Assembly (NCBI RefSeq): GCF_003334385.1
Contig: NZ_QOWN01000006.1
DNA from: Escherichia coli
GTDB taxonomy: Bacteria > Pseudomonadota > Gammaproteobacteria > Enterobacterales > Enterobacteriaceae
DNA: 64,000 nt
Strand: one strand, 5' to 3'
Part shown: piece by piece, positions 12,757 to 27,948 of the stretch
Layout of the letters: each line of letters opens with the position of its first letter
Numbering within the stretch: the stretch's first letter is position 1
Position numbers and translations under genes: made by a program
The notes under the pieces: generated by a model
What the model saw: the letters and a program-made list of their open reading frames with translations, nothing else
Databases searched by the model: none
What the model was told of the DNA's origin: nothing

Positions 12757-13542
12757 ATGTTGCAGGTGACAAGCGAACAATGGCTATCCTGGTTAAGCCT
12801 CTACTTCTGGCCGTTACTGCGCGTGCTGGCGCTCATTTCTACCGCGCCAATTCTGAGCGAACGCAGCGTGCCGAAACGGGTAAAACTGGGTCTGGCAATG
12901 ATGATCACGTTCGCAATTGCCCCATCATTACCTGCCAACGATGTTCCTGTTTTTTCGTTCTTTGCTCTGTGGCTGGCCGTGCAGCAGATCCTGATCGGCA
13001 TTGCGCTTGGTTTTACCATGCAATTTGCCTTTGCCGCTGTGCGAACCGCTGGCGAAATTATCGGCCTGCAAATGGGGCTGTCATTTGCGACGTTTGTCGA
13101 TCCGGCCAGCCATCTCAATATGCCCGTTTTAGCGCGTATCATGGATATGCTGGCGTTATTGCTGTTCCTGACATTTAACGGTCATTTATGGTTAATTTCA
13201 CTGCTGGTCGATACCTTTCACACCCTGCCAATTGGTGGCGAACCGTTGAACAGCAATGCGTTTCTGGCACTCACCAAAGCAGGGAGTTTGATTTTCCTTA
13301 ACGGGCTGATGCTGGCGTTACCGCTCATTACTCTGCTGCTGACCCTGAATCTGGCATTAGGTTTACTGAATCGTATGGCCCCGCAATTATCCATTTTTGT
13401 TATTGGATTTCCATTAACTCTGACTGTCGGTATCTCTTTAATGGCGGCATTAATGCCGTTAATTGCGCCTTTTTGCGAACATTTATTCAGTGAAATTTTT
13501 AATTTGCTGGCTGATATTATTAGTGAATTGCCATTAATATAA
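12757..13542 (+). CDS. fliR: Flagellar export apparatus protein FliR
   Basis: 261 aa from [13 protein letters not shown] (ATG 12757); ORF track start 12658 is an extension overlapping fliQ. Confidence 0.9.
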
Positions 13543-13567
13543 TTCCGTAACGTTTATCATGTTATCC

Positions 13568-13581
13568 TAAGGATTATCCGA
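13568..13581 (+). promoter_or_regulatory. Candidate RcsAB box upstream of rcsA
   Basis: taaggattatccga resembles the RcsAB box consensus TaAGaatatTCctA; lies in the AT-rich rcsA upstream region. Confidence 0.35.
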
Positions 13582-13831
13582 AAAATAATACCTACGAACA
13601 TCTTCCAGGATACTCCTGCGGCGAAATATTTGTTTTAAGCTCACTCACATATCGCAACATTTACTTTACTTTAAGACAATTCCAGGCAAATTATACAACA
13701 CTTTACGGGATAGTAAGTCCGCCTGAAAAATCGCGAGAGTAGCGCATTAGGTGACCCATGTTGTTCCGTTTAGTCATGATGAAATATTCAGGTAAGGGGA
13801 ATTATCGTTACGCATTGAGTGAGGGTATGCC

Positions 13832-14455
13832 ATGTCAACGATTATTATGGATTTATGTAGTTACACCCGACTAGGTTTAACCGGGTATCTGTTGAGTAGA
13901 GGGGTTAAAAAAAGAGAAATCAACGACATTGAAACCGTTGATGACCTTGCCATAGCTTGTGATTCACAGCGCCCTTCAGTGGTGTTTATTAATGAGGACT
14001 GTTTCATCCATGATGCTTCTAACAGTCAGCACATCAAGCACATCATTAATCAACATCCCAATACGTTATTTATCGTTTTTATGGCAATTGCCAATGTTCA
14101 TTTTGATGAATATCTATTGGTCAGAAAAAATTTATTGATCAGTTCTAAATCGATTAAACCGGAATCTCTCGACGATATCCTTGGCGATATTCTGAAAAAA
14201 GAGACAACGATAACCTCGTTTTTAAATATGCCGACGTTATCATTGAGCCGAACCGAATCGAGTATGTTGCGAATGTGGATGGCAGGTCAGGGAACCATTC
14301 AAATCTCTGACCAAATGAATATCAAAGCCAAGACCGTTTCATCGCATAAAGGTAATATTAAACGTAAGATCAAAACGCATAATAAACAGGTTATCTACCA
14401 TGTCGTCCGACTGACGGATAATGTGACTAATGGTATTTTTGTCAACATGCGCTAA
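13832..14455 (+). CDS. rcsA: Capsule synthesis co-regulator RcsA (LuxR-type)
   Basis: 207 aa starting [25 protein letters not shown]-terminal LuxR-type HTH. Confidence 0.95.
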
Positions 14456-14498: not shown

Positions 14499-14777
<279 letters not shown>

Positions 14778-15090: not shown

Positions 15091-15177
15091 AAATCCCGAC
15101 CCTGAGGGGGTCGGGATGAAACTTGCTTAAGCAAGAAGCACTTAAAAAATTCGTTACACCAGGAAATCTGATGTGTT
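15091..15177 (-). ncRNA. dsrA: DsrA small regulatory RNA (Hfq-dependent regulator of rpoS and hns)
   Basis: Reverse complement reads AACACATCAGATTTCCTGGTGTAACGAATTTTTTAAGTGCTTCTTGCTTAAGCAAGTTTCATCCCGACCCCCTCAGGGTCGGGATTT, matching the recalled DsrA sequence including the terminal GC hairpin and U-tract. Confidence 0.9.
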
Positions 15178-23049: not shown

Positions 23050-23415
23050 TTATTCATAGCGTCTGCTACGTGCGGGACGAGGTCGGGTGTACCAGGCAAT
23101 GCTGCCTAACAATGCCCCGACCAGAGCCATAAATAAAAATCCGACCAGTGCCCCTAACCACTTTCCCGCGGTAGAGCCTAAATCGCTTTCAAATCCCGAC
23201 ACGGGGGCATCGGGGATCCGGCTCATCACCCAGATGTAACGCGCCATTGCCCAGACGAAATAGCCACACCATGTATAGAAAGCCCACAAAGCCAGTTTGC
23301 CGCCAGGGCTGCGAGAGAGTCTCTCTTCCATCTTTGTCGAACCGTATTCCATTTTGAGATAACCCGGAAAATTCAGACTTAGTACTATTATGTGATAAAA
23401 GTCACATTTTTCCAC
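23050..23415 (-). CDS. yedR: Inner membrane protein YedR
   Basis: Two transmembrane segments; start ambiguous (TTG 23433, GTG 23415, or internal ATGs); no clear RBS. Confidence 0.5.
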   Translation of the reverse strand: MEKCDFYHIIVLSLNFPGYLKMEYGSTKMEERLSRSPGGKLALWAFYTWCGYFVWAMARYIWVMSRIPDAPVSGFESDLGSTAGKWLGALVGFLFMALVGALLGSIAWYTRPRPARSRRYE

Positions 23416-23578
23416 ATTGGATGAGCCAGTCAAGACTCACTCATTTTTTGAACAAATAGATAATTTTTGCGCAACGGCAGTGAATACAGGAAAAATCGTT
23501 TTGAGCGATTTTATTTATCTTTGATATCGGCTTTATTAATTCATTTAATCAATATATTAGCACTGATTACAATTATAC

Positions 23579-23669
23579 CTTTTTATTATTCTGTGTCATG
23601 ATGCTTACGTTATTAGCCTTTTATCGTCTTGTTTATATTTTTTGGGCCGGCATGATGCCGGCTTTTTTT
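23579..23669 (+). ncRNA. rseX: Candidate RseX-like small RNA in the yedR-porin intergenic region
   Basis: Intrinsic terminator (gccggca-tga-tgccggc then seven T) at 23646-23669 with no + strand CDS to terminate; I recall RseX mapping between yedR and yedS; 5' end is a guess. Confidence 0.4.
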
Positions 23670-23980
23670 ATACCTTCATTAATGTGCGCGTGATCACACC
23701 AAGTGTTTAGCGCAACAATCATTGATACTCCCTATCTTTCCGCTTAACTCATAACATATTGATATACATTTATAATTTTCATGAATATTTATATTTGGAA
23801 TTCATGATTCTGAATTATATTAAATAGATTAGAAACATTTTGAAATCTTTTAAATACATTTGTTGCATGTAATCCTTAAAATAAAATGAAGTTCATAGAA
23901 TAGTATCCAAATGTGCTTTTTTTTGGATAACGGCACTTATTGATATATTCATGAAGATTATAATCACAAGGGAATACATA

Positions 23981-25039
23981 ATGAAAAGAAAAGTTCTGGC
24001 AATGCTGGTCCCGGCGTTATTAGTTGCTGGCGCAGCAAATGCGGCTGAAATTTATAATAAAAATGGCAATAAACTGGATTTGTACGGCAAGATGGTTGGT
24101 GAGCGCATTCTGACCGACCGTGAAAATGGTGAAAAAGGCGATAATTCTCAAGATACCTCTTATGCCCGTGTAGGCGTGAAAGGTGAAACTCAGATCAACC
24201 CTGAATTGACTGGTTACGGTCAGTTTGAACTAGACCTGGAAGCATCAAACAGACACAACCCTGACCAAACTCGTTTGGCTTATGCTGGTTTGAGTTACAA
24301 AGATTTTGGTTCATTCGACTATGGTCGTAATGTCGGTGTCGCGTATGATGCAGAAGCATTTACTGATATGTTTGTTGAGTGGGGCGGTGATTCATGGGCT
24401 GGTACTGACCTGTTCATGACCAACCGTACCAACGGTGTTGCAACCTATCGTAACACAGATTTCTTTGGCATGGTTGAAGGTCTAAATTTTGCTCTGCAAT
24501 ATCAGGGTAAAAATGAAGGTACAGGCAACTACAAAGCAAATGGCGATGGCCATGGTTTATCTGTAACTTACACTATTGACGGTTTCTCATTTGCTGGTGC
24601 TTACGCAAACTCTGATCGTACTGATTTCCAGTCTAGTGATAGTAAAGGTGAAAAAGCAGAAGTTTGGGCACTGTCAACAAAATATGATGCCAACAACGTC
24701 TATGCTGCTGTGATGTACGGTGAATCTCACAACATGAATTCCGACGACGGTGATGTTGTGAACAAAACACAAAACTTCGAAGTTGTTCTGCAATATCAGT
24801 TCGACTTCGGTCTGCGTCCATCCATCGGTTACTCCTATTCTAAAGCACTGGACGTAGCAGGTTACAAAGATTCTGATCGTCTGAACTACATTGAAATCGG
24901 TACCTGGTATTACTTCAATAAGAACATGAACGTATATACCGCTTATCAGATCAACCTGCTTGATAAGAGTGATTATGTTCTCGCTCATGGACTGAACACC
25001 GACGACCAACTCGCATTTGGTATCGTCTACCAGTTCTAA
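23981..25039 (+). CDS. yedS: General-diffusion porin of the OmpC/OmpF family (yedS-type), apparently intact
   Basis: Signal peptide MKRKVLAMLVPALLVAGAANA, beta-barrel repeats, C-terminal YQF; ORF track start 23951 trimmed to ATG 23981 with RBS. Confidence 0.8.
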   Translation: MKRKVLAMLVPALLVAGAANAAEIYNKNGNKLDLYGKMVGERILTDRENGEKGDNSQDTSYARVGVKGETQINPELTGYGQFELDLEASNRHNPDQTRLAYAGLSYKDFGSFDYGRNVGVAYDAEAFTDMFVEWGGDSWAGTDLFMTNRTNGVATYRNTDFFGMVEGLNFALQYQGKNEGTGNYKANGDGHGLSVTYTIDGFSFAGAYANSDRTDFQSSDSKGEKAEVWALSTKYDANNVYAAVMYGESHNMNSDDGDVVNKTQNFEVVLQYQFDFGLRPSIGYSYSKALDVAGYKDSDRLNYIEIGTWYYFNKNMNVYTAYQINLLDKSDYVLAHGLNTDDQLAFGIVYQF

Positions 25040-26589: not shown

Positions 26590-27948
26590 TTAATTTCTTT
26601 GCGGTAACATAATCCGGAACACATTATGCTTATTGAGATAGTGATACGTAGCACTTCCCCCATGTAATTCGGCAATCGCTTTGACTAAAGAAAGACCAAG
26701 TCCCTGACCTACGGAATGACGCGAATTATCTCCCCGCCAAAATCTACGGAAGAGTTTTTCAGGCTCATGAATTTTCGTTCCAGGACTGGCGACATCAATA
26801 TTAAGATAGCCGTTGGTATCAAGAAAACTGGTTATCTCAATACGCGATTTTTCTGGTGAATATCTAATGGCATTAACAATAAGATTCGATAACATTCGTT
26901 GCAGTAAAATTTTATCCGCAAAGATTTGCTGATTGCACTCGACCTTAAAGCAAATCTCTTTCTCGTCTGAAAGGTATTCAAGATAATCCAACAAATTTTC
27001 GACTTCCTTATTGAGAGAAAGCGAGTCCAGTTTCACCAAAACATTGTTTTTATCTGCCCGGGCAAGAAACAGTATGTTCTCTGTTAACCGCGAAATATTT
27101 TCCAGCTCTTCAATGTTACCGGCAATTGTTTTTTGATATTCAGCGATACTTCTGGTTTGACTGAGCGTAACCTGATTCTGACCCAGTAATGCATTAATGG
27201 GCGTTCTAAGTTCATGAGCGAGATCGTCAGCAAATTGACTTAGGCGTTCAAAATCTTTGACTAAAGCATGATGCATTTTATTCAACGCCTGCCCAAGAGG
27301 TTTTAGTTCTCTCGGTAATGCGCTAACCTCAACAGGCTCCCGGCTATCGTTATAATTCAGCGCTTCCGTTACACCACTCAACTTTTTGATCTCTCGTAAC
27401 CCCGTTCGGATTAACAGCGGACTTAATACTGAGCACAGTATAATGGCGACAATGCAAATTATAATGCTATTGATTTTATACTGTTCAAGCATGTTATGTC
27501 TGGCTGAAGCCAATTTAGCCACAGTAACCGTTAATGATGGCGAAACTTCATCAATATTAATTCGTAAAGCATCTATCTCTGTATCATTAATAATGCTTCT
27601 GTAAATGCCAGCTGCGCTGATTGTCTCACTAGCAGGTATGTTATTTAACATGCCATCACTGACATTTGTCCGGTTAACAATTTTATTGATGCTATCACCA
27701 TGAATGATCAAGATATCCTGACTAACATCCATCATCCGGTTAAAGTACACAGGTAACGTATCTGGATTTACCCCATCAATTAACAACTGCTTGATCTGTG
27801 CTGTCCGGTTAATGAGTGTTGTATCATCGCGCCATTTCAACTCACTTGCCAGGCCATTATAGAGAGTCCAGACAATTCCAGCACCAGCAACAGACAGTAG
27901 CAATATAAAAAGCAAGGTTAAACGGACGGTTATAGACAATCTTTTCAT
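26590..27948 (-). CDS. hprS: Sensor histidine kinase HprS (YedV)
   Basis: 452 aa; two transmembrane segments, HAMP, H-box HELRTP, HATPase domain. Confidence 0.9.
   Translation of the reverse strand: MKRLSITVRLTLLFILLLSVAGAGIVWTLYNGLASELKWRDDTTLINRTAQIKQLLIDGVNPDTLPVYFNRMMDVSQDILIIHGDSINKIVNRTNVSDGMLNNIPASETISAAGIYRSIINDTEIDALRINIDEVSPSLTVTVAKLASARHNMLEQYKINSIIICIVAIILCSVLSPLLIRTGLREIKKLSGVTEALNYNDSREPVEVSALPRELKPLGQALNKMHHALVKDFERLSQFADDLAHELRTPINALLGQNQVTLSQTRSIAEYQKTIAGNIEELENISRLTENILFLARADKNNVLVKLDSLSLNKEVENLLDYLEYLSDEKEICFKVECNQQIFADKILLQRMLSNLIVNAIRYSPEKSRIEITSFLDTNGYLNIDVASPGTKIHEPEKLFRRFWRGDNSRHSVGQGLGLSLVKAIAELHGGSATYHYLNKHNVFRIMLPQRN

Follow-up and report, generated by a model that had tools for sequence, protein, structure and literature searches.

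The 14-mer TAAGGATTATCCGA in the spacer between fliR and rcsA of Escherichia coli is very probably the RcsAB box of the rcsA promoter, at which RcsA together with phosphorylated RcsB would activate rcsA in a positive feedback loop for the colanic-acid capsule. This is an already described site and not a new one. We identify the 14-mer with it because of the published Salmonella orthologue and because of its conservation in 79/79 rcsA loci, a count that overstates the number of independent events, the loci being related.

The analysis covered a stretch of 64,000 nt of the E. coli chromosome (the window), in which the gene order is fliR, spacer, rcsA, dsrB, yodD, DsrA, and yedP (Table 1). The string that the initial annotation had flagged as resembling the rcsA autoregulation site, taaggattatccga, is present on the + strand at 13568-13581, where it had been placed. 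Compared with K-12 MG1655, the window differs at 23 positions across an aligned 2.3 kb. Only two of these, 13620 and 13741, lie inside the spacer, and both fall elsewhere than in the known rcsA site; the 14-mer itself shows no difference and corresponds to positions 2,023,704-2,023,717 of the K-12 sequence (NC_000913.3 position = window position + 2,010,136). Of 5426 complete E. coli genomes, 5201 contained a 501-nt query spanning the spacer (13400-13900), and 181 gave no match to it. In at least one, NZ_CP195351.1, the match was limited to the first 52 nt, inside fliR, suggesting that some E. coli strains carry a deletion or an insertion at rcsA. Small open reading frames in the spacer (22 to 38 aa) were dismissed, being located in poorly conserved sequence. 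The 38-codon frame at 13758-13874, which opens within the leader and runs across the rcsA start out of frame with it, occupies the leader's least conserved stretch and is probably not a gene.

Table 1. Features of the rcsA control region and its surroundings, in coordinates of the 64,000-nt window
Feature	Position	Strand	Remarks
fliR	stop codon ends at 13542		
AT-rich domain (no more than 38% GC in 300-bp windows)	13287-14408	.	probably bound by H-NS; includes the fliR 3' end, the spacer, and the larger part of rcsA
YdaT (Rac prophage regulator) footprint core TGAATTGCCATTAATATA	13524-13541	+	-176 to -159; found verbatim in the window
Weak box-like copy TAATATAATTCCGT	13535-13548	+	9/14, without G4; overlaps the fliR stop codon and the YdaT site
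fliR-rcsA intergenic spacer	13543-13831	+	289 bp, 39.4% GC
RcsAB box of the rcsA promoter (very probable), TAAGGATTATCCGA	13568-13581	+	-132 to -119 from the TSS, -264 to -251 from the ATG
Conserved block CATCTTCCAGGATACTCCTGC	13597-13617	+	palindrome CAGGA-TAC-TCCTG, about -103 to -83
Inferred -35 hexamer TTTACT (4/6)	13665-13670	+	placed from the TSS; invariant across 79 loci
Box-like motif TAAGACAATTCCAG	13672-13685	+	10/14, 5/5 capitals; -28 to -15, in the promoter spacer
Inferred -10 hexamer AATTAT (4/6), 18-bp spacer	13689-13694	+	placed from the TSS; invariant across 79 loci
rcsA transcription start site (TSS)	13700	+	Kim et al. 2012, PMC3415461, supplementary file 2
rcsA 5' untranslated leader	13700-13831	+	132 nt; Shine-Dalgarno GAGGG at 13821-13825
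rcsA coding sequence	13832-14455	+	207 aa, GerE/LuxR-type regulator; ATG at 13832
dsrB	14499-14687	minus	
DsrA small RNA	15091-15177	minus	Rfam RF00014, 102.5 bits, E = 1e-19; annotated dsrA in K-12

Measured against the RcsAB consensus TaAGaatatTCcta (quoted in PMC4325325), TAAGGATTATCCGA agrees at 10 of 14 positions, among them the five that the consensus gives in capitals (T1, A3, G4, T10, and C11). Taken alone, the motif match does not exceed chance, the pattern being too degenerate for significance. The loose form TAAGN5TCNNA occurred four times in the window against 4.41 expected, 65 of 100 shuffled sequences did as well, and two of the further loose matches lie within 120 bp of the flagged one, at 13636 and 13672. 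A scan with the full RcsAB consensus allowing at most three mismatches did not recover the site at 13568-13581. These counts are what one would see if the 14-mer were a loose match that had arisen by chance in AT-rich DNA and had no regulatory role. We nevertheless regard that explanation as extremely unlikely, given how the site has been kept in other genera and that the Salmonella orthologue is bound by phosphorylated RcsB (PMC5758874).

For the comparison across genera we collected 80 rcsA loci, one genome per species, encoding RcsA proteins 80 to 97% identical to the query; 79 of them had enough upstream DNA. The genera include Escherichia, Citrobacter, Salmonella, Enterobacter, Lelliottia, Kosakonia, Trabulsiella, Phytobacter, Leclercia, Cedecea, Buttiauxella, Yokenella, and Pluralibacter; an earlier protein search had returned E. 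coli RcsA alone and thus no diversity. Six positions of the box, T1, A3, G4, T10, C11, and A14, were invariant in every one of the 79 loci (2.0 bits each), among 19 variants of the box with the consensus TGAGGATATTCCTA. The neighboring bases have diverged: conservation was 0.80 bits over the 20 nt upstream and 0.57 bits over 13585-13596, and mean pairwise identity was 0.84 in the box versus 0.52 in the next 15 nt. With flanks so divergent, enough time has elapsed for the conservation of the box to be informative. The loose match at 13636, in contrast, was kept in just 15 of the 79 loci, which also speaks against a chance origin of the flagged site. Within the box the outer half-sites are invariant and the center is variable, which at the sequence level is the pattern to be expected of a putative dimeric helix-turn-helix site. 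Its distance to the rcsA ATG ranges from 187 to 350 bp among the loci, a spread of 163 bp. More distant RcsA homologues also have one good upstream box, namely, TAAGAGTTGTCCGA in Sodalis (62% identity) and TAAGAATATTCCCA upstream of a homologue with 44% identity.

The position of the box in our window points to the same site. Searched with the box strings, the literature gave two papers containing the Salmonella box. In the first, Casino et al. 2018 (PMC5758874) used a Salmonella probe, CCTGTTTTACTAAGGTTTATCCGAAAATA, spanning rcsA -275 to -247, which, following Wehland & Bernhard 2000, they named the RcsAB box; in the second, Huesa et al. 2021 (PMC7913699) place the same Salmonella box at -264 and give no other rcsA site. 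The window box begins at exactly -264 from the ATG of the same gene, is identical to that of K-12, and differs from the Salmonella box by one non-consensus base, so the earlier proposal that the 14-mer is the rcsA autoregulation site is supported. Phosphorylated RcsB shifts the Salmonella rcsA probe in electrophoretic mobility shift assays (EMSA), and the RcsB variants K180A and Q185A do not (PMC5758874). Binding of phosphorylated RcsB is thus directly documented for the Salmonella orthologue and, by analogy, would carry over to the E. coli box. The 14-mer reads as two half-sites around a variable center. In E. coli itself, Wehland and Bernhard in 2000 reportedly found that mutating conserved bases of the rcsA box reduces Rcs-dependent expression.

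That RcsB by itself shifts the Salmonella probe also raises the question of the binding partner, and the site might chiefly serve RcsB alone, or RcsB with another partner, rather than the RcsA-RcsB heterodimer. The box does resemble the RcsB homodimer consensus TN(G/A)GAN4TC(T/C)NA, given in PMC7913699. The shift was, however, weaker than that obtained with flhDC, and its authors blame the absence of RcsA (PMC5758874). Position 5 of the box is moreover a G, versus A in the homodimer consensus. High levels of RcsA are also said, from work by Ebel and Trempy in 1999, to raise rcsA expression about 100-fold. Taken together, these points make it very unlikely that the site chiefly serves RcsB alone or with another partner, and the RcsA-RcsB heterodimer remains the preferred occupant. 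The flhDC RcsB/RcsAB box, TAGGAAAAATCTTA, offers a comparison: like the rcsA box, it is a 14-bp pseudo-palindrome with TnAGGA-type half-sites, which RcsB K180 and S184 contact in a crystal structure (PMC5829831). The two differ in placement and effect, the flhDC box lying downstream of its TSS and repressing, the rcsA box lying far upstream (-125.5) and activating.

To place the box relative to the promoter, we used the genome-wide TSS map of Kim et al. 2012 (PMC3415461), in which rcsA starts at NC_000913.2 position 2021860, 132 nt before the ATG. The 51-mer upstream of that start is identical to window positions 13650-13700, so that +1 is 13700. As a cross-check, the center of the YdaT core then computes to -167.5, in agreement with PMC11879457, which gives the core sequence and puts it some 170 bp upstream of the rcsA start. 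Set against the mapped K-12 promoter, the box is thus centered at -125.5, upstream of the TSS and in nontranscribed DNA. The initial annotation had described the whole region as a long AT-rich leader; the AT-richness stands, but part of the region lies upstream of the TSS and the leader measures only 132 nt. A weak second TSS within fliR, at window position 13149 (NC_000913.2 2021309, 683 nt before rcsA), is also assigned to rcsA by Kim et al. 2012 (PMC3415461).

A scan of the spacer with the sigma-70 consensus returned no promoter on the + strand, the inferred promoter (8/12) falling below threshold; such a weak promoter fits one that is activator dependent and silenced. The block around it, 13648-13717, is nearly invariant over the 79 loci (mean, 1.66 bits), and so, in most genera, are the last 37 nt of the leader. 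We rejected the idea of a structured leader: the fold compared with shuffled sequences gave z = -0.89, and there was no Rfam hit in the spacer. The inverted repeat AATTATCGTT (13800-13809)/AACGATTATT (13837-13846), which surrounds the Shine-Dalgarno sequence and the AUG, was likewise set aside, as it showed no covariation. Its 5' arm, AATTATCGTT, is missing in Buttiauxella and Cedecea.

Other box-like sequences lie close by. PMC11879457 describes two RcsAB boxes at rcsA, with "box1" over 13524-13541 and no coordinates for "box2," and states that their separate roles are not known. The weak copy TAATATAATTCCGT is a direct repeat of 13671-13683 (85% identical) and is possibly this box1. Between the known box and the promoter sits the palindromic block of Table 1, whose first part (13597-13612) averages 1.61 bits over the 79 loci. 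Its subsequence CCAGGATACTCCTG, at 13604-13617, was also weighed as an additional box but discarded, the TC half being one base off in most genera.

It is conceivable, then, that the box at 13568 is accessory and that autoregulation runs mainly through the motif at 13672-13685 or through a box1 over 13535-13548. The two boxes of PMC11879457 would allow this, and the promoter-proximal motif equals the main box in conservation and in its agreement with the consensus (10/14, 5/5 capitals). The -264 box is, however, the one singled out as the rcsA RcsAB box in two independent papers, PMC5758874 and PMC7913699. The copy at 13535-13548 lacks G4 and is poorly conserved, with only C13545 and C13546 invariant across genera, and -28 to -15 would be an unusual location for an activator site. 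We therefore consider an accessory role of the 13568 box very unlikely and retain it as the principal site.

The promoter-proximal motif deserves attention in its own right. The pattern T.AG.....TC is present there in 78 of the 79 loci, and as in the known box, the half-sites (T, A, G, A and T, T, C) are invariant and the three central bases are variable; an A/G polymorphism at position 2 is common to both. Of 79 informative loci, 77 have it at a distance of exactly 104 bp from the RcsAB box. The exceptional cases are L026, with 103 bp, and L064, which has a poorer anchor match and also shows 104 bp. The Buttiauxella version of the motif, TGAGAAGTTTCTTA, agrees fully with the RcsB homodimer consensus. 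The pair formed by box and proximal motif is absent from Sodalis and from more distant RcsA homologues. A literature search with the motif strings, whose scope did not extend to the primary E. coli papers, did not find the motif in an rcsA context; it may be new, and we do not claim novelty.

Judged from this conservation, T[AG]AGAnnnTTC[CT]T[GA] at 13672-13685 is a tentative candidate for a second RcsB-family operator in the rcsA control region of the Enterobacteriaceae, a reading that we regard as possible but rather doubtful. If it were true, RcsAB or RcsB bound at both sites could cooperate through a phased loop, 104 bp being about ten helical turns; or else the proximal site could act by remodeling the 18-bp promoter spacer or by limiting the feedback loop. 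On a plainer view, the motif simply belongs to the invariant core promoter, and activation from the single known box, being phase dependent, accounts for the constant spacing.

The base composition of the region is in line with silencing by H-NS. The GC content falls from 53.8% in the whole window to 39.4% in the spacer and 35% upstream of the TSS, and 300-bp windows with at most 38% GC make up only 3.4% of the window. By this measure the AT-rich domain is larger than the spacer, to which the earlier description had confined it, and the tract 13287-14408 is probably bound by H-NS. Comparable stretches occur at 23253-24175, 26710-29340, and 30892-32237. H-NS shifts an rcsA promoter fragment by EMSA (PMC2686267), and in a strain lacking both hns and hha, rcsA is highly expressed, derepressed, and without response to YdaT (PMC11879457). 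A bioinformatic study proposed a likely curved H-NS target at -130 to -400 (PMC6070653), an interval that coincides with the GC minimum found here. With 35% GC upstream of the TSS and published repression by H-NS, the claim of an AT-rich, H-NS-silenced promoter holds. The high-affinity H-NS nucleation motif TCGATAAATT, which favors silencing but does not define it, had no match with two or fewer mismatches in 13543-13831. Three near-matches to it lie in the rcsA coding sequence (14067-14172), the best, with one mismatch, at 14129-14138.

DsrA, which the initial annotation had put about 1.3 kb downstream, lies 1.26 kb beyond the rcsA ATG. Its sequence covers the full length of the RF00014 model (1-85), with a score of 102.5 bits versus a gathering score of 60. 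Its anti-silencing effect was described by Sledjeski & Gottesman 1995, as summarized in PMC12152304, and DsrA pairs with hns mRNA, so that its effect on rcsA is indirect, through hns mRNA, and not exerted on rcsA DNA. The rcsA/DsrA pair is the paradigm of H-NS-silenced promoters relieved by a small RNA, and the window locus is that paradigm, with its AT-rich promoter region, its derepression when hns is mutated, and the adjacent DsrA gene.

These elements would combine as follows. A heterodimer of RcsA and phosphorylated RcsB would bind the box and raise transcription from the promoter at 13700, giving positive autoregulation. The promoter on which it would act is a weak sigma-70 promoter (TTTACT, 18 bp, AATTAT, +1 at 13700) lying within an AT-rich tract silenced by H-NS, and DsrA, encoded on the opposite strand, would lower H-NS synthesis and thereby relieve silencing indirectly. 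Degradation of RcsA by Lon limits the feedback loop (PMC11014345). We infer that activation from -125 depends on helical phase, and the -35 and -10 assignments are of the same kind. Into this scheme the binding of phosphorylated RcsB (to the Salmonella orthologue), repression by H-NS, and anti-silencing by DsrA enter from the literature, and the sequence, its position relative to the published TSS, its identity to K-12, its conservation, and its near-fixed spacing to the core promoter come from the present comparison.

Production of the colanic-acid capsule is set by the RcsA positive feedback loop, of which the site is the cis element. This is textbook Rcs material, and confirmation of the rcsA RcsAB box in itself adds nothing new. 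The comparison makes two small additions: the operator lies upstream of the transcript and not in the leader, and across genera the arrangement of box and promoter is constant to the base pair, so that a helical-phasing or a two-site model of rcsA autoregulation can be tested directly.
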